A DNA stretch of 20,000 nucleotides from an uncultured virus (IMG/VR IMGVR_UViG_3300031420_000005) (lineage: Duplodnaviria > Heunggongvirae > Uroviricota > Caudoviricetes), in the IMG/VR virus record IMGVR_UViG_3300031420_000005; one strand, written 5' to 3'. Made by a program: the position numbers and the translations under genes. Below the pieces are notes generated by a model, which saw nothing but the letters and a program-made list of their open reading frames with translations, ran no database searches and was not told the origin of the DNA. Positions within the stretch are counted from its first letter, which is position 1, and each line of letters starts with the position of its first letter. Below are positions 2-16,104 of this stretch, in pieces.

Positions 2-124
2 GATGAGGAGAACGGAGCTTCCTGGGGCACAGAGAAGTTTTGCCGGCAGTTCCTTGAGGATCTCCTCATGCACTCCGGTGTCGTTCGAGCCCACTTCCTT
101 GAGTTCGCGGGAAGCTTCGAGTGA
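2..124 (+). CDS. 3' end of a hypothetical protein running in from the left edge (…DEENGASWGTEKFCRQFLEDLLMHSGVVRAHFLEFAGSFE*)
   Basis: Frame 2 is open from the window edge to TGA at 122-124; same strand as the next gene. Confidence 0.5.
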   Translation, partial: DEENGASWGTEKFCRQFLEDLLMHSGVVRAHFLEFAGSFE

Positions 125-151
125 CCGTTCGCCATCAGCGATAGGAAGGCC

Positions 152-7111: not shown

Positions 7112-7444
7112 ATGAGCAACGAGGTTGTAGCCTTCAGAGGGAAGCTCGCACCGGTAGATCTCCAGGGCAAGACAGTCGACAGCTGGATTCAGGAGAGGCT
7201 CGGCACGAGCTACCTCGACGGCTCCTACCGGAACTGGGCAGAGGCACTCGAGGATGAGTGCTACGGCCAGTACCTCTTCCACGAGGAGACCGGCAGACTC
7301 TACGAGGTGCAGCGAGAGAAGCTGCAGCCCGAGGGCTTCGTGCAGTCCACCACCAATCCCGACGGCACCATCGACTTCGTGATGAGCTACTACGGCGACA
7401 GTGCTCGGTTCCGGGACTTCGCTGGGGGTATCCTCGCCCACTGA
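7112..7444 (+). CDS. Hypothetical protein, paralog of 11320-11673
   Basis: Shared RGKLxPVxL, WIQxRxG, LYExQRExL, DGxxDFxxSYY. Confidence 0.8.
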   Translation: MSNEVVAFRGKLAPVDLQGKTVDSWIQERLGTSYLDGSYRNWAEALEDECYGQYLFHEETGRLYEVQREKLQPEGFVQSTTNPDGTIDFVMSYYGDSARFRDFAGGILAH

Positions 7445-9639: not shown

Positions 9640-11127
9640 TCAGCCTCCAGCGTGGATACCCCTGAAGAGCTGCTCTCCGTTCCAGCGATGCTCGTCCCGG
9701 GACTTCCAGCAGAGCTCCATGTCCTCGTTGGGATGAGCGGGGTTGAGATCCCTCCAGAACCAGTCGTCCCGGGCAGTGAAGCTGTTGCGGAGATCCTCGG
9801 GGAAGCTCTCAAAGCGCTCGGTGACTTCGGGTTCGACCTCCTCGATCCAGAGTGCGAGGGCCTTCAGGCCCAGGTCCCCGTCCGTGGTTCCCTCGATGAG
9901 CCAATTCTCTCCATCCTCGCCGAGGTCCCAGACCACGACCTCATCCAGGGTCTCGCGCTCCGGGAGGGTCACACCATCGGTCCAGCCCTTGAGCACGGCT
10001 GCAAGCTTCGGCTCCGTGGGCTCAGGAGCTCCAGTGCTGCTCCACCAGATGCGCCTGAAGATGCGCTCCAGCCGGTAGGCTTCCTGGGCAGCCTCAGCCA
10101 CGAGCTCGGGGGTGACCAGGTGATCGTAGGTCACGGTCTGCCAGTAGGTCGGGTAGAGCTCGAAGAGCTCGGAGAGCTGAAGCTGACCGGCCCTGATGGA
10201 GTTGGCCCAAATTCGGAGGATGGGATTACCCCAAGTGGGGTGCTCGACGAAGCGCATCCGAGAGAAACTCACGCCGATCTCATCCCTCTGGCCACTGGGA
10301 CCTCTCCGGTGCTTTGCGAGGTTCAGGGAGAGGATGTCCTCATCTGACCTCTCGGTGGAGCGCCGGTGGAGGAGAAGCACCTGGTCGGCGTCCTGCTCAA
10401 GGGCACCGGTCCACCGGATGTCGCTGAGCTTCGGCGGATACTCTTCGCCGATGAATCGATTGAGCTGAACAGTCACCAGAACGGCCACACCGAGCTCCAG
10501 GGCCAGGAGCTTGAGATCCCGGGAAACGGCGGCGAACTTCTCCTGTCTAGACGCACCTGTGGCTTCGAGGGATGGCATGATGAGCTCGAAGTAGTCCACG
10601 ACGATGAGATCGAGGCCTCTCTCGCTACCGATGAGCTCCAGGGCACGGGCTCGGATGTGCGCTACGGTCTGGCGAGGATCGTCGTCCAGGGTGAGCGCGA
10701 GCTGGCTCAACGCCCAGCGCGCATCTCGAATGAGCCGGCCTGTGTAGGGATTGGTCTCTCTGGCTTCTTGCTTGACCTCGGGAATCGTCAGGGAGGTCTT
10801 CGAGGCGATCATCCGCGCAAGGAGCTCATCCGCACTCATTTCAAGGCTGGAGAAGAGCACGGACTTGCCAGCCTGGAGGGCGCCGAGGGTGCTCTGGATA
10901 GCGAAGGCTGACTTGCCGTCTCCGGGGCGAGCGGCGATCAGGGACAGGCCACTGGGCGTCCACCCTCCGGTCCACTCGTCGAGCATGGAGAACCCGGTGG
11001 GGACACCGATGGGCTTTCGAACGAAGGCGGATCCCTCTGAGACCTCTCGGAGTGCGCGAGTGTAGCTTCCAGCTCCGGCTTCCTTGCGGCGCCGGGCTTC
11101 CAGCTTCTGTCGTCTGTTCTTGGTCAT
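9640..11127 (-). CDS. DnaB-like (SF4) helicase ATPase domain lacking the DnaB N-terminal domain, with a basic N-terminal peptide and an unknown ~190-aa C-terminal domain
   Basis: GVPTGFxxLD, AARPGDGKS, SLEMS, IVVDY, QLNR, PKLSDIRWTGALEQDAD, LAKHRRGP; start taken as ATG 11127 (MTKNRR). Confidence 0.88.
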   Translation of the reverse strand: MTKNRRQKLEARRRKEAGAGSYTRALREVSEGSAFVRKPIGVPTGFSMLDEWTGGWTPSGLSLIAARPGDGKSAFAIQSTLGALQAGKSVLFSSLEMSADELLARMIASKTSLTIPEVKQEARETNPYTGRLIRDARWALSQLALTLDDDPRQTVAHIRARALELIGSERGLDLIVVDYFELIMPSLEATGASRQEKFAAVSRDLKLLALELGVAVLVTVQLNRFIGEEYPPKLSDIRWTGALEQDADQVLLLHRRSTERSDEDILSLNLAKHRRGPSGQRDEIGVSFSRMRFVEHPTWGNPILRIWANSIRAGQLQLSELFELYPTYWQTVTYDHLVTPELVAEAAQEAYRLERIFRRIWWSSTGAPEPTEPKLAAVLKGWTDGVTLPERETLDEVVVWDLGEDGENWLIEGTTDGDLGLKALALWIEEVEPEVTERFESFPEDLRNSFTARDDWFWRDLNPAHPNEDMELCWKSRDEHRWNGEQLFRGIHAGG

Positions 11128-11275
11128 GGGACTACTCAACTCTCTACAGCTCTACCCACGCCTGGCTGCTTGAAGGAGCAGATACCAGAGACCCATAGGA
11201 TTCAGGGAACCTTGTTCTTGGGGGCTCACCGCGTGGGAGTGAAGCTGCGAAGACAGGCCGCTATGGGCAGCCAGG
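11128..11275 (-). ncRNA. Candidate structured cis-regulatory leader RNA (copy A)
   Basis: Homologous to 13484-13627 with compensatory changes in three helices. Confidence 0.7.
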
Positions 11276-11309
11276 TCCCATGCTAACACACTGGCTGCAG
11301 TCTGTGCAC
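11267..11309 (-). promoter_or_regulatory. Promoter GTGCAC-N18-TAGCAT with the -10 in the loop of an 8-bp inverted repeat
   Basis: GCAGCCAG 11267-11274 / CTGGCTGC 11291-11298; -10 at 11280-11285. Confidence 0.5.
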
Positions 11310-11319
11310 TCCTCGAAGC

Positions 11320-11673
11320 TCAGAGAGTAGGCAGATTCAGCTCTCCCTGGCCGACAACCTCGTCCATGACCTCGCCGAAGCTCGCGCCACCGTTGTAGTA
11401 GCTCACGAGGAAGTCGAAGCTCCCGTCGAGATTGCGCTTCGAGTGGACGAAGCCGTTGGGATCGAGTCGCTCTCGCTGGATCTCGTAGAGAGTCTCGCTG
11501 CTCCGGTCGTAGTAGTAGGAGCCGTAGAGATCCTCCTGGAGGGCTTCCAGCCAGCTGGACTCGTAGTCCTCGAGCTCGCTGCGGCCGATGCGCTTCTGAA
11601 TCCACTGGTCCAGGGTCTGCTCTCCGAGCTCCACCGGGATGAGCTTTCCTCGATAGGTGTCCACATCGCTCAT
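11320..11673 (-). CDS. Hypothetical protein, paralog of 7112-7444
   Basis: SD GGAAGGAG; alignable over nearly its full length to 7112-7444. Confidence 0.85.
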   Translation of the reverse strand: MSDVDTYRGKLIPVELGEQTLDQWIQKRIGRSELEDYESSWLEALQEDLYGSYYYDRSSETLYEIQRERLDPNGFVHSKRNLDGSFDFLVSYYNGGASFGEVMDEVVGQGELNLPTL

Positions 11674-11838
11674 GGGAGCGCTCCTTCCGTAGCTGCCAGC
11701 CTAAGGTCCGAACCATCCTACCATGCATCATCCAACGGAATCGACCTAGAGCTCGCTCAGGACGCAGCCTACGGCCAGTCCGAGGGCACAGGAGATCGTC
11801 GAGCATTAGAGACAGCACCAAGAGCTAGAGGGAGCACG

Positions 11839-12717
11839 ATGAGCACCATGAGATTCCATGTGAACGATGAGACCGGCGAAGTCGGTGTCTGCAAGGCCCG
11901 GACCGGCGAGGAAGCCACAGGTCGAGGCTGCCCCTTCGGCGGGGATGACAAGCACTACGCCACGGGCGCCGAGGCTCGAGCCGCCTACGAGAAGTCCATG
12001 GAGGAGGAGCTCACTCCCGTAGCCCTGGTGAAGCAGAAGGTCAAGGCCGCCTTCGGGATCAAGTCGACCCCCAGGGAGAAGCCCGAGTTCCACGCTGAGG
12101 ACGGCTTCACTAAGATGGTGCTCGCCGTGGAGGCCGCCCACGACGCCACCTCCACCGACCGGGAGTTGGAGCAGGCTGAGTACAACTTCTTCCTCTCCCA
12201 GTCCCTGGAGGGCGAGGACACCGCTCTGCCCGCAAGCTACCGGGAATTCTACGATGAGCCTGAGCTTCAGAACGAGGAGCTCTCCCTGAAGGACTGGAAG
12301 GCTGAGAACTCCACCCAGCAGTTCGTGGTCCAGAGGCTCCTAGAGTCGGCCCACGCCCACCACTACACGGCCATGGAGAACGCTGGGCTGCGGTCGAGCC
12401 GGTTCTTCGAGGCTCTCCAGAAGGAAAACGGCCAGGAGCTCACCGGAAATCCCGTGAGCGAGGCCGGTGAGCAGGGCAAGATCGAGCGCTACGACCAGGG
12501 TGCCATCTACAGCTACACGCAGGCTGCAAGGGAGGCCATGGGCCGATCCTTCCCCGAGACCTCCAGCCGGAAGGAGCAGCTCGCCGCACTCCGGGAGTTC
12601 GTCGAGGAGCGCACAGCCTTCCTTGAGGTGACCTACGACCCCGAGAGCTCCGACTTCGAGGAGGGCAAGGTGGGCTCTCAGGTTGAGTGGCTCAACGAGC
12701 CCTTCGACTGGGAGTGA
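11839..12717 (+). CDS. Hypothetical protein with an N-terminal His/Cys putative Zn-binding module and an acidic helical body
   Basis: SD GAGGGAG before ATG 11839; FHVNDETGEVGVC…CPFGGDDKHY; the longer ORF-track start overlaps the divergent gene. Confidence 0.75.
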   Translation: MSTMRFHVNDETGEVGVCKARTGEEATGRGCPFGGDDKHYATGAEARAAYEKSMEEELTPVALVKQKVKAAFGIKSTPREKPEFHAEDGFTKMVLAVEAAHDATSTDRELEQAEYNFFLSQSLEGEDTALPASYREFYDEPELQNEELSLKDWKAENSTQQFVVQRLLESAHAHHYTAMENAGLRSSRFFEALQKENGQELTGNPVSEAGEQGKIERYDQGAIYSYTQAAREAMGRSFPETSSRKEQLAALREFVEERTAFLEVTYDPESSDFEEGKVGSQVEWLNEPFDWE

Positions 12718-12941
12718 TCCTCGGCCTGCACTGAGGCTCTCTAGGAACCGCTCCGGCAGATTCGACGCCGGGGCGGTTCTTGCTGCGGCTGCCCTCCTAA
12801 GCCCCGAACTCTTCGGTCGCACATCATCGAACCGAAGTGCGAGAGAAGTCGCGTAGGCGGCAGCCTGTGGCCGGAGAGAGGCAACTCTAGGCCTATCTGG
12901 AATCGATACCATGGAAAGGACACTCGATAAGGAGAATCCCG

Positions 12942-13427
12942 ATGCCCCTCGTAGAAGAGAGTAGCTTCAAGACCCTGGCCAAGGCCCTGGAACCCATGGA
13001 GCTCGCTGGCCAGCTCCGCTACCTGCCGGCCTTCGAGTGCTGTGGGAGCTGTGCTGGAGCTCGACTCAACGGCTTCATGGACACTCCGGCAGAGGACTGG
13101 GGCGACTACGAGCTCTATGTGACCTTCGATGAGCAGGCCGTGGAGAACAACATCACACTGCAGCTCTGGCTCACCGCCTGGGCCTTTGGACTACCGTTCT
13201 CCGAGGAGGATGAAGCTCGCATCAACCGCATCGTCGCCGACGAGCTCATCGCCGGAGGCTTCAGGGAGATTCCAGCGCCCTCCGAGGAGCATCTGAGCGC
13301 AAAATCTGATCCGAACCTCGAGCTCAACACCTTCTTCATCTACGGAGGAGCCCTGGTGGTTCGCGGCCTCTTCGAGGGCAAGCCCAAGCCCACCAAGGCA
13401 GTGCGGAAGCTCGGCCTCCGCTACTGA
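12942..13427 (+). CDS. Hypothetical protein with a CCxxC motif (possibly DUF6891-like)
   Basis: SD AAGGAG; FECCGSCA…YVTFDEQ; family assignment is tentative. Confidence 0.7.
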   Translation: MPLVEESSFKTLAKALEPMELAGQLRYLPAFECCGSCAGARLNGFMDTPAEDWGDYELYVTFDEQAVENNITLQLWLTAWAFGLPFSEEDEARINRIVADELIAGGFREIPAPSEEHLSAKSDPNLELNTFFIYGGALVVRGLFEGKPKPTKAVRKLGLRY

Positions 13428-13457
13428 GGTCACTACTCAAGCATTCCTCTAGGAGCT

Positions 13458-13491
13458 TCGGCCAGGGCTTTGATAGTGTGGTTCTGGCCGA
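13458..13491 (+). promoter_or_regulatory. Putative -10 TAGTGT in the loop of an inverted repeat
   Basis: TCGGCCAG 13458-13465 / CTGGCCGA 13484-13491; -10 at 13474-13479; same position relative to the leader as in copy A. Confidence 0.5.
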
Positions 13492-13627
13492 CTACAGCGG
13501 CCCGTCTTTGGGTAGTGTCTCCACGCGACCGCCTCTAGAGCAAGGTTTCCGAATCCTGTAGGTTACTGACAGCACGCATTCCTGTGCAGTCGGGCGTGGA
13601 GCGACTGTGAACAGAGAGCAAACTGCC
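13484..13627 (+). ncRNA. Candidate structured cis-regulatory leader RNA (copy B)
   Basis: Homologous to 11128-11275 (-) with covarying stems. Confidence 0.7.
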
Positions 13628-14659
13628 ATGACCAGTAACCGCAAGAACAAGCGCATCATCCGGGACCACATGGAGAAGACCGGACTCAACTTCCTCGAGG
13701 CGAAGCTTCAGCTCGAGGCCTCGGGCGTGATCTCGAAGCCCGGAGAGCCGAAGGCCGTCGACCCCAACGGCCTCAACTGGCCGCTCCGCACGGGCAGGCC
13801 GAAGGTCCCGGCGGCACCGCTCGGCAGGGCCATCACCGTGACCTCCTCCAAGGGCGGTGGAGGCAAGACAAGCACAGCCCTAGCCCTGGGAGCCTACCTC
13901 GCCCTGTCCTCCAGGAGCGGCCCTTACAGGCCACTGAAGGTGCTCGTCCTCGACCTCGATGTGCGAGACGGACAGATCGGATTCTTCACCGGATTCTGGA
14001 AGCCCACGGTGATGCGGCTCCTTCGCTACGGGATCAGCGAGAGCGAGATCAAGGCCACCGTGATCCATGACGATGGACTCGATGTGGATGTGCTCCTCGC
14101 TCCCCGGCGACCGCGCTCGGCGGATGACCTCTCCCCGGAGTTCTATGCTGAGCTCATCGCGAAGCTCAGGGGAATCTACGACTACATCGTCCTCGACACT
14201 TCGGTGAGCTACTCAGATCCGATTCGCTCGCAGGTCGGTTACGGCTACGGCACCACCGACAGGATCCTGGTGCTCGCCGATGCCACCAACACCTCGCTCA
14301 TGGGACTGTCCCGCTGGATTCAGTCAGTTACCGCGCCACTTGACCAGGGTGGGCTGGGAGTAGCCAAGAGCCGGATCAGCGTCGTTCTCAACAGGGTGCT
14401 CCCCGGCACCGATCCGGAGAGCAATCAGAAGGTCATCAACAGCGCTCTGGAGATTCCCATCGTCGGCTCAATTCCCCTCAGGAGTGAGCTCTTCCACAGC
14501 GCCTCCGACGCGGGAGCTCTAGAGCGGGTTCTCGATGATCCGGAGATTCGAGCAGCCCTCAGGCGAGTGCTCCTCTCGGTGGTAGACCACGAGCTCGGAG
14601 AGCTCCCTGGGACAGAGGCTGAGCCGGAGCGACCTGAGGAGGACGGCCGCAGGGACTGA
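13628..14659 (+). CDS. ParA/MinD/CpaE-family ATPase with a basic N-terminal peptide
   Basis: Deviant Walker A SSKGGGGKTS, LDLDVRDGQ, YDYIVLDT, VVLNRV; start taken as ATG 13628 (MTSNRK). Confidence 0.88.
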   Translation: MTSNRKNKRIIRDHMEKTGLNFLEAKLQLEASGVISKPGEPKAVDPNGLNWPLRTGRPKVPAAPLGRAITVTSSKGGGGKTSTALALGAYLALSSRSGPYRPLKVLVLDLDVRDGQIGFFTGFWKPTVMRLLRYGISESEIKATVIHDDGLDVDVLLAPRRPRSADDLSPEFYAELIAKLRGIYDYIVLDTSVSYSDPIRSQVGYGYGTTDRILVLADATNTSLMGLSRWIQSVTAPLDQGGLGVAKSRISVVLNRVLPGTDPESNQKVINSALEIPIVGSIPLRSELFHSASDAGALERVLDDPEIRAALRRVLLSVVDHELGELPGTEAEPERPEEDGRRD

Positions 14660-14673
14660 CTTCAGCTGACAGC

Positions 14674-14710
14674 AGGGGCGCCCGCGGCTCTAGGAGCTGT
14701 GGGCGCCCCT
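14674..14710 (+). terminator. Strong stem-loop after the ParA-like gene
   Basis: AGGGGCGCCCGCGGCTC-TAG-GAGCTGTGGGCGCCCCT. Confidence 0.6.
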
Positions 14711-14811
14711 CGCCCTTGGGCCAAGGAACTCCATTCGGCTCGATCCGCGTGGCTCCGGCGTTTTTCGATAGGATAGGCGGAAGGAACACACCACTGAACT
14801 AGGGAAAGCAC

Positions 14812-16104
14812 ATGGCAATCAAGGTAGAGCTCAACGGCGGGCTAGACATCGGCAACGGCTACATCAAGGCGCTCGTCGAGAGCAAGAGCGAGGGTGGCAA
14901 GCGGGACACCGTGGACATGCCCTCGGCTGTGGCCATCCTCACTCGGCCCAACCAGATCCCCACCAGCGACGAGGACGCCGTCGAGGTACTCACGGGAGAG
15001 GGCGCTGACTTCTTCAATCAGCTCGATGCATCCTTCGACAGCCCGCTGATCCCAGACAGCTACCGGCGGGTCTTCGGCATGCGCTCCCTGTCCGCAGACG
15101 GTGCCTTCGAGGAGTTCGACACCGTGGGCCGGGCCTCCAAGGCCAAGCAGCCCCTCTCCAAGGCTCTGGTGCTCGGGATCTTCGCGGCCAAGGCCCTGAA
15201 GGACTATGTGGCCCGGGAGGGTGAGCTCCCCGACGAGGAGATCCTCGTGGACGCGAGCGTGGCCCTGGCGCTGCCGATCTCCGAGTTCATGCGCCACCGG
15301 GAGAGCTACGCTGCCGAGTTCATCAACGGCGGCAAGGCTCACATCGCCGTGGTGAAGAACTTCGAGACCAGTGTGGTCGTGAAGATCAGCTTCTCCAAGG
15401 TCGAGGTCCTCGCAGAGGGCGCTTCGGCTCACTACGCCATCGCCGAGCGTGGTGCCTCGATCATGGACAAGGTGCTCTCGGATCTCCTGGAGAACGCTCC
15501 CAGCCCCGAGCGCCGGGAGGAGCTCGCTGAGATCACTCCCGAGGATGTGCTCGCTGCCACCAACACCATCGGCATCGATGTGGGCGAGGGCACGGTGAAC
15601 TTCCCGGTTTTCACCAACGGCAAGTTCAACGCCGACGCCTCCCGGACCCTGGACAAGGGCTGGGGCTCAGTGCTCCTCTCGGCCATCACGGCCATGGAGG
15701 ACCAGGGCATCGAGGCTGGCTTCAGCTCCCGGAAGGACATCGCTGAGTTCCTCCAGAGGAAGCCCTCTGCGCTCAAGAAGACCTTCTACAACCGGGTCCA
15801 GCAGTTCGTGGATCAGGAGGCCGTGTTCTTCGCCGAGGAGGTCGCCGAGAAGCTCGGTACCATCCTCCGCAATGTGGGCGCCATGACCGAGGTCGGCTTC
15901 GTCTACGGCGGTGGAGCCGGTGCCATGAAGGATGTGCTCTACCCCCGGCTCCAGGAGAAGATCAGCGAGATGAACTCCATCAGCGCCTTCCCACTCCTCT
16001 ACCTCGACGGATCCTACTCCCGCCACCTCAACCGGGCTGGTCTCTTCCTCGCCTCCCAGGACAAGACCAAGGCTGAGGCCAAGAAGCCCAAGAAGAAGGA
16101 CTAG
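14812..16104 (+). CDS. ParM/StbA-family actin-like ATPase
   Basis: Phosphate-1 GLDIGNGYIK, connect-1 VLAEG, phosphate-2 GIDVGEGTVN, adenosine VYGGGA. Confidence 0.88.
   Translation: MAIKVELNGGLDIGNGYIKALVESKSEGGKRDTVDMPSAVAILTRPNQIPTSDEDAVEVLTGEGADFFNQLDASFDSPLIPDSYRRVFGMRSLSADGAFEEFDTVGRASKAKQPLSKALVLGIFAAKALKDYVAREGELPDEEILVDASVALALPISEFMRHRESYAAEFINGGKAHIAVVKNFETSVVVKISFSKVEVLAEGASAHYAIAERGASIMDKVLSDLLENAPSPERREELAEITPEDVLAATNTIGIDVGEGTVNFPVFTNGKFNADASRTLDKGWGSVLLSAITAMEDQGIEAGFSSRKDIAEFLQRKPSALKKTFYNRVQQFVDQEAVFFAEEVAEKLGTILRNVGAMTEVGFVYGGGAGAMKDVLYPRLQEKISEMNSISAFPLLYLDGSYSRHLNRAGLFLASQDKTKAEAKKPKKKD

Follow-up and report, generated by a model that had tools for sequence, protein, structure and literature searches.

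Two genes of the window (the whole 20,000-nt stretch of DNA that was analysed) are each preceded by a leader of about 150 bases, which raises the question of whether both leaders represent one RNA element and, if so, what such an RNA would do in front of a replicative helicase and a partition ATPase. The gene behind leader A codes for a DnaB-like helicase, in which no DnaB_N domain was found by Pfam, and the gene behind leader B codes for a ParA/MinD-like ATPase that carries a conserved, helix-rich N-terminal segment of 38 aa (Table 1). More distant relatives of the ParA-like protein are 48-60% identical. The earlier note had considered these two ATPase genes unrelated, a description that needs qualification at the N-termini, as both proteins have the octapeptide MT[KS]NR[RK]xK in common and hhalign gives a weak alignment of their N-termini (44.6%, E 2.3e-4). 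Both leaders are located in short spacers, each behind a co-directional gene (ORF117 upstream of dnaB and ORF161 upstream of parA), and they are inverted with respect to each other, three small genes lying between them in a segment of 2.2 kb.

Judged by their sequences, leaders A and B are diverged, homologous copies of one element, as the earlier note had proposed; the sequence blocks that it quoted and all its helix coordinates proved correct. Indeed, an A copy and a B copy were 72% identical over 134 nt (blastn, E 1.9e-8), the mean column identity of the A/B alignment was 76% (229 columns), and the motif AGCGGCCYGTCTT, followed after 10-30 nt by CCACGCG, occurred twice in the window versus 0.00 times expected (200 shuffles). 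A covariance model (R1), built from the leader A copy, matched leader A with 188.4 bits (E 1.1e-51) and leader B with 138.2 bits. The element is an uncultured, plasmid-like one; it lies on contigs of 178-298 kb and was encountered in 13 sequencing runs of 12 studies, none of the listed runs being recorded as RNA. A model search of the window and three related metagenome contigs (L030, L031, and L032) yielded nine strong matches, corresponding with seven distinct copies (four A and three B), the next-best score being 12.2 bits. The covariance model suggested earlier retrieved the same A/B pair in related contigs, and this divergent pair was present in all related contigs of sufficient length to contain both copies.

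Table 1. Coordinates of the leaders, their predicted helices, and the adjoining genes (positions in the window, unless a contig is named).
Feature	Position	Strand	Remark
Leader A	11122-11280	-	Before DnaB-like gene; extent from match to covariance model R1
Leader B	13478-13633	+	Before ParA-like gene; paralogous to leader A
-10-like box with TG extension, TGTTAGCAT	11280-11288	-	Directly 5' of leader A; kept in 4/4 A copies
-10-like box with TG extension, TGATAGTGT	13471-13479	+	Directly 5' of leader B; kept in 3/3 B copies
DnaB-like helicase gene	9640-11127	-	Pfam DnaB_C 7.4e-54; PHROG 19; behind leader A
ParA/MinD-like ATPase gene	13628-14659	+	Pfam AAA_31, CbiA; PHROG 164; behind leader B
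H0 in A, GGCUG/CGGCC	11256-11272	-	RNAalifold consensus; 7-nt loop is P1 5' strand
H0 in B, GGCCG/CGGCC	13486-13502	+	RNAalifold consensus; loop ACUACAG
P1 5' strand in A, CCCAUAG	11261-11267	-	Partner 11192-11198
P1 3' strand in A, CUAUGGG	11192-11198	-	Partner 11261-11267
P1 5' strand in B, CUACAG	13492-13497	+	Partner 13556-13561
P1 3' strand in B, CUGUAG	13556-13561	+	Partner 13492-13497
P2 hairpin in A, CCCACGCG in loop	11225-11243	-	UUCAC/GUGAG here; UCUGU/ACGGA in L030, L031
Long-range helix 5' strand in A, CCCACGC	11231-11237	-	In P2 loop; partner 11155-11161
Long-range helix 3' strand in A, GCGUGGG	11155-11161	-	Ends 27 nt before ATG
Long-range helix 5' strand in B, UCCACGC	13520-13526	+	Partner 13594-13600
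Long-range helix 3' strand in B, GCGUGGA	13594-13600	+	Partner 13520-13526
P3 hairpin in A, CUGGU...GCCAG	11162-11188	-	Pyrimidine-rich loop CUCCUUC
P3 hairpin in B, CUGAC-A-GCAC...GUGC-A-GUCGG	13566-13593	+	
Two most conserved blocks in A, GGCCUGUCUU and AAGAACAAGGUU	11207-11259	-	Mutually complementary (helix Pa, two bulged A)
Leader A orthologues	L030 437-597; L031 5845-6006; L032 3668-3827		
Leader B orthologues	L031 3480-3635; L032 1302-1457	-	

Comparison of the window with L031 indicates that both leaders are conserved well above the local neutral level. Leader B was 0.960 and leader A 0.902 identical, versus 0.61-0.76 for codon third positions (five well-aligned coding stretches of four neighbouring genes), 0.64-0.82 for other spacers, and 56% for the DnaB proteins; identity fell steeply on either side of leader B, the spacer directly upstream being 64% identical. 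The A leaders from four further runs represented mostly the same alleles, among the variants listed. Alternatively, the copies could be inverted repeats that serve a DNA rearrangement (inversion of the 2.2-kb segment), or functionless copies kept alike by gene conversion. Their inverted placement around three small genes would fit the former, and B-like patches in A alleles suggest conversion between the copies, but order and orientation of A and B were identical in the window, L031, and L032, identical blocks were at most 13 nt long, no strand-changing joints were present among those listed for the contigs of four runs, and conversion within one element cannot account for conservation between elements. 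This explanation is considered highly improbable.

The borders of the leaders agree with those put forward before: a TGnTAGnnT box adjoins the start of both, and ATGACC is found 27 nt 3' of the end of the long-range helix described below. Transcription presumably proceeds from these TGnTAGnnT boxes, neither of which was called by a strict sigma-70 scan of the sequence (0 sites). The short frames upstream, of 6 codons in A and 20 codons in B, are not homologous, indicating that the leaders are not coding; no leader peptide conserved between A and B was found.

P1, the long-range helix, and the 3' hairpin (P3) keep their pairing by means of compensatory or wobble changes, as read from the aligned copies, so that the compensatory differences between A and B claimed in the earlier note are real. 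In the case of P1, both bases differ in two pairs (C-G to U-A and U-A to C-G), and its first pair is C-G in all four A copies and an unpaired A.G in all three B copies. The long-range helix keeps 7/7 pairs in 7/7 copies, with one compensatory change, namely its end pair (C-G in A and U-A in B). Similarly, the outer five pairs of P3 are kept in all seven copies, with two pairs changed on both sides and five G.U cells; its inner part occurs in A as two different alleles, and in the B copies CU is replaced by UC opposite GG and C by U opposite G, the pairing always being kept. These named helices of the earlier fold model were retained, and P2, H0, and the Pa complementarity, which it omitted, can be added. 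H0 keeps 5/5 pairs in 7/7 copies, one of them being either C-G or U.G. The two P2 alleles of A, both of which are also found in run contigs among the variants listed, differ at every stem position, yet form five pairs each, three pairs being changed on both sides; P2 in B is weak (two to three pairs). As the 'b' allele of A resembles B at 14/16 positions, one gene-conversion patch could have altered both P2 arms.

Taken over all helices, eight pairs changed on both sides, a count that derives from one A/B split and two allele pairs, a diversity so low that an R-scape-type test would have no power. The model consisting of H0, P1, P2, the long-range helix, and P3 has 97.3% of its 222 cells paired, and a rod model (see below) 94.8% of 232, versus 27.7-46.0% when partners were slid as a control. 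Among the three B copies, 13 columns vary, of which eight are within proposed helices, and all eight remain paired, as read off the alignment. The seven-copy alignment contained 10 conserved stems with a minimum length of 5 bp (together 54 bp) versus a mean of 2.55 (13.35 bp) upon column shuffling, whereby the stem count was matched in 2/1000 and the base-pair total in 0/1000 shuffles.

These 10 stems apply to the sense strand; the antisense strand had four (23 bp). Furthermore, H0 and P3 require G.U pairs, which favours the mRNA-sense strand, and 16 G.U cells (H0, P2, P3, and a small inner hairpin) pair on that strand only. P1 and the long-range helix are purely Watson-Crick and would thus form equally well in DNA or on the antisense strand. 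Shared operators often bring about joint repression of the replication and partition operons of plasmids, and the leaders could accordingly be conceived as duplicated promoter-operator modules for an element-encoded regulator, for instance the N-terminal domain of the ParA-like protein, with the inverted blocks acting as protein half-sites instead of RNA stems. In favour of this are the -10-like box at which the blocks begin, the perfect symmetry of P1 and the long-range helix at the DNA level, and the conserved N-terminal segment of the ParA-like protein, a candidate for such a regulator. The putative half-sites, however, are 63-73 bp apart and downstream of the start, should not diverge between two copies within one element if read by one protein, and would leave the sense-only G.U pairing unexplained; moreover, neither iterons nor short repeat arrays were seen. 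Control at the DNA level is hence regarded as unlikely.

Both stretches most likely fold into a knotted RNA. P1 crosses the long-range helix, which implies a pseudoknot if both form simultaneously. This crossing order is compatible with the pseudoknot that had been proposed; the nearest-neighbour minimum-energy fold is a nested alternative lacking P1 or P2 (-52 to -64 kcal/mol), versus about -37 to -49 kcal/mol for folds constrained to have P1 or P2, in which the energy of the crossing helix is left out. Single-sequence z-scores were modest (-1.94 for A and -0.79 for B). The P1 duplex was more stable than 494-500 of 500 shuffles in the A copies and 479-486 in the B copies, and the long-range duplex was equalled by 6-39 of 500 shuffles across both types. 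The long-range strand in the P2 loop is flanked on both sides by 1-nt linkers, which fits the linker rule for a classical H-type pseudoknot. It is presumed from this model that the crossing helices coexist rather than alternate. The domain closed by P1 folded, on its own, into a P1-Pa-P2 rod in six of the seven copies, the interior of the copy B_L032 folding otherwise. Pa itself keeps 8-10 of its 10 pairs per copy by alignment columns, displays no covariation across the seven copies, and contains a C.A mismatch in B; it may, tentatively, form in competition with H0. A further candidate helix, P0, between the extreme 5' end and the region before the AUG, is broken by a G to A change in 2/4 A copies.

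That the leaders fall outside known families, as presumed before, is in agreement with Rfam 15, none of whose models reached its gathering threshold. The whole window gave no matches; the 3-kb stretch gave five weak ones at E <=10, none of which hit the leaders; and leader A alone gave one 12-bit match to a miRNA model over the dnaB ATG only, whereas leader B alone gave none. A scan called no terminator-like sites, nor was a conserved helix found that masks the Shine-Dalgarno (SD) region. A helix masking the AGAGA(G) tract, formed with UCUU and its neighbours, was equalled by 6-51 of 500 shuffles in A and by 125-357 in B, so that AGAGAG masking exceeds shuffles in the A copies only.

With a probability of roughly one half, the leaders may represent a structured 5' leader RNA of a new kind, whose hairpin loop forms a pseudoknot with its tail and by which the genes for replication and partition are co-regulated post-transcriptionally. 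The sense-strand leader RNA of each gene would form a compact domain of about 120 nt, closed by P1 (7 bp) and carrying the P2 hairpin at its tip. The P2 loop (CCCACGCG) would pair with GCGUGGG, which lies 3' of P3 at 27 nt from the start codon, resulting in the loop-to-tail pseudoknot; H0 could likewise offer the P1 strand in its loop. As a cis-acting, post-transcriptional control element present in two paralogous copies, the leader would bring synthesis of both the replicative helicase and the partition ATPase under one signal, most likely a trans-acting factor that reads the invariant blocks (an element-encoded protein, though an RNA or a small ligand is conceivable) and alters translation initiation or mRNA stability. 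Neither a conserved terminator nor an SD-masking helix was found, and this mechanism is presumptive, as are the regulatory role of the leaders and its mode. Through the leaders, the element probably exerts joint control over both genes. The P1 sequences differ between A and B, and the long-range helix is shared. A bolder version, in which the leaders are switches of a new class that sense a ligand or a protein, or else a novel self-cleaving ribozyme, with two interleaved loop-to-tail pseudoknots (H0/P1 and P2/long-range) in two orthogonal copies, one signal gating both helicase and ParA, is possible yet rather doubtful.

A simpler function would be that of a 5'-terminal stabiliser or exoribonuclease block, whereby the knotted fold shields both mRNAs from 5'-end-dependent decay without sensing any signal. 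A transcription start 7-8 nt past the -10-like box would place H0 within 1-2 nt of the 5' end, the predicted fold is compact and pseudoknotted, and no expression platform was found, all of which would suit such a role. Simple protection, however, would not need about 35 invariant unpaired positions in paralogues with diverged stems and would leave the 96% identity across diverged elements unexplained, making a mere stabiliser improbable.

An RNA-processing element was also considered, which could be a site of the RNase III or RNase P type or a novel self-cleaving ribozyme; numerous invariant unpaired nucleotides, as present here, are typical of catalytic cores. The leader would then be cut from read-through transcripts (ORF117 into dnaB and ORF161 into parA), fixing the 5' end of the downstream mRNA, in line with the position of both copies in short spacers behind a co-directional gene; in addition, the nested alternative fold is a long interrupted duplex, of the kind cut by RNase III. 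HDV-like ribozymes possess a nested double pseudoknot, in which P1 crosses P2, with an inner P3 (3 bp, with a 7-8-nt loop) and a peripheral P4, a G.U pair at the base of P1 (the cleavage site), and a catalytic C in J4/2. The leaders resemble them in the order of the predicted strands (P1 5', long-range 5', inner hairpin, P1 3', P3 hairpin, and long-range 3'), in size (about 120 nt), and in the variable peripheral hairpin before the last strand. In contrast, the P1 base of the leaders is C-G (A) or A.G (B) instead of G.U, their P3 hairpin (ending at alignment column 123) abuts the long-range strand (column 124) with 0 nt in between, leaving no room for a catalytic C, and their inner region is far longer. 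Also, no Rfam ribozyme family, HDV-type models included, matched the leaders even at E <=10, and the position of the -10-like boxes points to a separate start immediately at the element. Processing is thus not a likely function.

A target of antisense-RNA copy-number control was weighed as well. Work on the activator pseudoknot of IncI1 and IncB plasmids is reportedly that of Asano and Mizobuchi and of Praszkier and Pittard. Leaders of this type combine a loop-paired tract adjoining the ribosome-binding site with a translated leader peptide coupled to the rep gene and an overlapping antisense RNA gene. According to PMC8053102, the activator pseudoknot in the leaders of repZ/repA from IncI1 (ColIb-P9) and IncB (pMU720) arises by base pairing between a hairpin loop and a distal tract upstream of the start codon, a pairing that matters for translation. 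Applied to the present leaders, translation would require the loop to pair with the tail, which a small antisense RNA bound to the loop would prevent, throttling helicase and ParA together. The architecture is alike, with a predicted loop pairing to a distal tract before the start codon of a plasmid replication gene; constraint on both strands would fit the very high conservation; and P1 and the long-range helix are strand-neutral. However, no antisense -10-like box common to A and B was seen upon reading the sequence, the model search encountered no third, partial, or antisense leader copy in the 20-kb window, a conserved leader peptide and an antisense RNA gene were not found, and the distal strand, 27 nt from the AUG, does not adjoin the ribosome-binding site. 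Unlike the IncI1/IncB leaders, with which there is no sequence similarity and whose host lineage is unrelated, the present ones are larger, having P1 and P3 too, and are duplicated before a partition gene. Antisense control as the main function therefore has little probability.

The majority of the structured leader RNAs catalogued so far act on genes for metabolism, transport, or ribosomal proteins, and RNA control of plasmid replication is known mainly from antisense systems of small enterobacterial and Gram-positive plasmids. Here, one RNA design occurs twice in a large, uncultured, plasmid-like element and is kept more strictly than the proteins themselves. If its fold and regulatory role hold, it would constitute a new RNA family and a natural case of a replicon that has one regulatory RNA in two orthogonal versions, and would offer a handle on the coupling of copy number and segregation in giant extrachromosomal elements. 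The paralogous pair moreover provides built-in compensatory mutants for experiments.

Other known systems show partial likeness to the leaders. The P1-closed domain has the size (72-77 nt) and the 7-bp closing stem of a tRNA, and the invariant GGUUC...GAAUCC resembles a T-arm (GGUUCGAAUCC). Unlike in a tRNA, the 'T-loop' has two to three extra variable nucleotides, its stem would be only 2-3 bp long and would compete with P1, and the domain, folded freely, forms a rod instead of a cloverleaf in 6/7 copies; ARAGORN found no tRNA or tmRNA, and the Rfam tRNA model did not match the leaders. Pseudoknotted riboswitch aptamers of the hairpin-loop-to-outside type, such as preQ1-III, SAM-II/V, and ZTP, are located in 5' leaders and combine a loop-to-tail pseudoknot with junction nucleotides that are conserved. 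Conserved junction nucleotides, a predicted loop-to-tail pseudoknot, and the leader location are found here too, but there is no Rfam match and no conserved terminator or SD-masking helix, and the replication and partition gene context suggests no metabolite. Lastly, the mRNAs of T4 gene 32, Escherichia coli rpsO (S15), and rpmI-rplT (L20) contain pseudoknots near their start that are read by proteins and set translation. No homology with these operators was detected, and the genes served here code for a helicase and a partition ATPase, not for nucleic-acid-binding autoregulators of a known type; what the leaders have in common with them is a predicted pseudoknot upstream of the start.

The alignment of leader A, located ahead of the DnaB-like gene, with leader B, located ahead of the ParA-like gene, ran from a TGnTAGnnT box to ATGACC, with a mean column identity of 76% over 229 columns. 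By blastn, an A copy was 72% identical to a B copy over 134 nt (E 1.9e-8), and the ordered blocks occurred twice in the window versus 0.00 times expected. The presence of two diverged leader copies, as proposed in the earlier note, was thus confirmed by alignment, blastn, and block count, and the coordinates assigned there to P1, the long-range helix, and the 3' hairpin all proved correct against the sequence. Its interpretation as a structured regulatory RNA held in part: the helices are conserved and partly covarying and no Rfam match exists, but the structure model needed additions, and expression and function are both predicted. Similarly, its failure to recognise a known family was borne out, as neither leader matched an Rfam 15 family at the gathering score or at E ≤10. 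The N-termini of the DnaB-like and ParA-like proteins share an octapeptide pattern (MTKNRRQK, 11104-11127, minus strand; MTSNRKNK, 13628-13651, plus strand) and, as far as the Walker A region, can be weakly aligned (hhalign 44.6%, E 2.3e-4); therefore, the duplicated unit may include the first codons besides the leader. A second P2 allele of leader A (11225-11247, minus strand), found in the related metagenome contigs L030 and L031 and in the sequencing runs X4 and X10, matches leader B (13514-13533, plus strand) at 14 of 16 positions around CCACGCG, and a UCUCCG variant of the inner loop likewise resembles B. To judge from these sequences, this allele may have arisen by gene conversion between the paralogous leaders, with the B copy as donor. 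A role of the leaders as recombination repeats is very improbable.

Features of the two leaders and their genes (window coordinates for leaders and genes; columns of the seven-copy alignment for helices)
Feature	Position	Strand	Observation
Leader A	11122-11280	minus	block-for-block alignment with leader B
Leader B	13478-13633	plus	block-for-block alignment with leader A
DnaB-like helicase gene	9640-11127	minus	Pfam DnaB_C 7.4e-54, DnaB_N absent
ParA/MinD-like ATPase gene	13628-14659	plus	
H0	columns 9-13 / 21-25		5' hairpin with the 5' strand of P1 as its 7-nt loop
P1	columns 14-20 / 84-90		two pairs changed on both sides, A versus B
P2	columns 38-42 / 52-56		hairpin with CCCACGCG in the loop
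Long-range helix	columns 44-50 / 124-130		invariant except for the end pair: C-G in A, U-A in B
Outer P3	columns 96-100 / 119-123		two pairs changed on both sides, plus wobble changes

Both leaders are constrained at the nucleotide level. Between the window and contig L031, of which the helicase proteins are 56% identical, identity reached 0.960 for leader B (150 nt) and 0.902 for leader A (153 nt), versus 0.61-0.76 for codon third positions (five well-aligned coding stretches in four neighbouring genes) and 0.64-0.82 for other spacers. Leader B plus the initial 100 nt of parA make up a block on either side of which identity fell to 0.2-0.6. Synonymous changes are present within the coding start of parA, indicating that what is constrained in the leader is the nucleotide sequence itself. 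At its N-terminus, the ParA-like protein has a conserved, helix-rich segment of 38 residues (13628-13741, plus strand) and then a hypervariable linker; this segment, which may be a nucleic-acid-binding or adaptor domain, persists in ParA relatives (P0128-P0135) of as little as 48% identity, whose contigs reach 674 kb.

The model comprising H0, P1, P2, the long-range helix, and P3 paired 97.3% of 222 cells, versus 31.6-45.2% when the partners were slid by one to three columns, and contained eight pairs changed on both sides. The compensatory differences between A and B that had been claimed for P1, the end pair of the long-range helix, and outer P3 were all recovered. Furthermore, the two P2 alleles of A (UUCAC/GUGAG versus UCUGU/ACGGA) differ at every stem position and both pair. 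Among the three B copies, 13 columns were variable; eight of these belong to proposed helices, where each of the eight retains pairing, standard or wobble. Upon column shuffling of the seven-copy alignment, the ten conserved stems (54 bp) compared with a mean of 2.55 (13.35 bp), the observed number of stems being reached in two of 1000 shuffles and that of base pairs in none; the reverse complement gave only four stems (23 bp). In duplex energy, P1 as well as the long-range helix outdid the majority of shuffled controls, in A and in B alike. These two helices are strand-neutral; H0 and P3 need G.U pairs, so that the sense strand is the better candidate. That the leaders would be a DNA operator module is improbable, and so is a role as the target of an antisense control RNA. 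The P3 loop (11162-11188, minus strand) keeps CUCCUUC in both A alleles despite a differing flanking stem and reads UUCCU in B; the loop sequence resembles the 3'-terminal pyrimidine tract of 16S rRNA, and no convincing partner for CUCCUUC was found.

P1 crosses the long-range helix. The data are compatible with two global folds, of which the first, Model I, is a rod with a pseudoknot. When its P1 domain (72-77 nt) was folded alone, P1 formed in all seven copies and, in six of them, the blocks of highest conservation (GGCCYGUCUU and AAGARCAAGGUU) also paired into a helix, with P2 at the tip. In this model, GCGUGGG, which follows P3, is the partner of the P2 loop; the linkers measure 1 nt, in keeping with a classical H-type pseudoknot. 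Model I paired 94.8% of 232 cells; covariation was absent from its extra helix, in which B has a C.A mismatch. Model II, which is nested, is both the minimum-energy and the RNAalifold fold, and contains H0, a closing helix with part of the AGAGAG tract (the candidate SD region), the long-range helix, and P3. Nearest-neighbour rules give Model II an advantage of 15-20 kcal/mol over Model I when the latter's crossing helix is left uncounted; the closing helix of Model II was no better than chance in B. The models may represent a single pseudoknotted fold, in which the crossing helices would coexist, or two alternating states; the data fit either. Four other candidates were rejected, namely a GUCUU/AAGGU pairing (register 27-31/69-73), which yielded 0.0 kcal/mol, SD masking as a conserved feature, which fails in B, a helix between the 5' end and the region preceding the AUG (P0), which gave mixed results, and a cloverleaf reading, which was not supported. 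In HDV-like ribozymes, P1 has a G.U pair at its base, and the catalytic C is carried by a joining strand. The topology of the leaders fits such a ribozyme but both hallmarks are missing. Self-cleavage, or a function as an RNase processing site, is improbable.

A profile built from the helicase and six close metagenomic relatives retrieved four JGI contigs, one of them the window itself. A covariance model built from five leader copies found A before every dnaB and B before every parA wherever the contig was long enough. Its nine hits at E ≤1e-34 represent seven distinct copies (four A, three B), the next-best score across 52.9 kb was 12.2 bits, and no third copy was found in the window. All copies belong to one family of elements, with two paralog types and two allele pairs, and therefore provide few independent compensatory events. 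At least part of a 2.75-kb stretch (11000-13750) was contained in 13 sequencing runs from 12 studies, none with a recorded RNA source; ten of these (X4-X13) held only 5-8% of its sampled words. Contigs from four such runs, which show no starts or ends, cover leader A, among the differences listed mostly with the same variants as the JGI copies, and relatives less than 90% alike still span the leader and gene starts. What X4-X13 have in common may be short conserved parts, for example the leaders.

Outside this family, blastn of 6 kb against plasmids and phages gave no match, tblastn of the DnaB-like protein gave nothing beyond matches of less than 40% identity, and the regions preceding four dnaB genes, among the best on actinomycete plasmids, gave no match to the covariance model (≤8.1 bits). 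Viral contigs contained no DnaB-like or ParA-like relative. A profile of 12 ParA relatives led to 42 distant ParA loci, none of which matched the covariance model at E ≤1, and a relative of the ParA profile at E ≤1e-40 occurred in none of the 401 genomes sampled from the phylum of G001. More distant ParA relatives, 48-60% identical, share the N-terminal motif. The one exact-pattern match in a viral contig (L001) and one of those in genome contigs (L008) lie within coding sequence and show no further similarity; all 28 genome-contig matches were judged to be due to chance, because the covariance model scored ≤14.4 bits on 29 loci and no tRNA was found in the ten loci scanned. A non-exhaustive literature search, including passages of PMC2864571, yielded no paper on the leader motif.

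The DnaB-like and ParA-like genes form a divergent pair, with three small genes of unknown function in between; the sole matches of their products were a weak one to DUF6891 and one to PHROG 6035 (unknown function), without an informative family or Atlas neighbour. Nearby lie genes for an AAA ATPase, an FtsK-like protein, and a partition protein of the actin-like type, indicating a plasmid or phage-plasmid-like element. The metagenome contigs on which proteins of the window were found measure 178-298 kb. The ParA/MinD-like gene adjoins the actin-like (ALP_N) gene (13628-16104, plus strand), so that a single operon-like row contains two segregation ATPases of different kinds. At its C-terminus the DnaB-like protein is extended by about 200 residues without a family match (9640-10230, minus strand), which is the part least conserved between elements (0.35-0.55 nucleotide identity). 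ORF117 (11320-11673, minus strand; PHROG 6035), directly upstream of leader A, has an opposite-orientation paralog about 4 kb away (7112-7444, plus strand; blastn about 69% over 260 nt). Located 3' of ORF292 is an inverted repeat rich in GC, AACCGCTCCGGC...GCCGGGGCGGTT (12741-12780, plus strand), with few T after it. This repeat, a candidate terminator-like hairpin, was not called by the strict scan.

Neither tRNA nor tmRNA was detected by ARAGORN, scans returned no terminator-like or strict sigma-70 sites, and neither iterons nor a conserved upstream reading frame were found. With a transcription start that is itself predicted, the best-supported reading, with a probability of about 0.5, is that each leader would be a sense-strand structured RNA acting after transcription, that a common trans-acting factor would read both leaders, and that this shared factor would couple helicase and ParA synthesis. 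A passive 5' stabiliser, which would involve no such regulation, is improbable. It is credible that the element represents a new structured RNA family with a narrow known distribution, its main interest being a duplicated, covarying design ahead of replication and partition genes. The closest functional analogue is the activator pseudoknot of the IncI1/IncB rep leader (PMC8053102).
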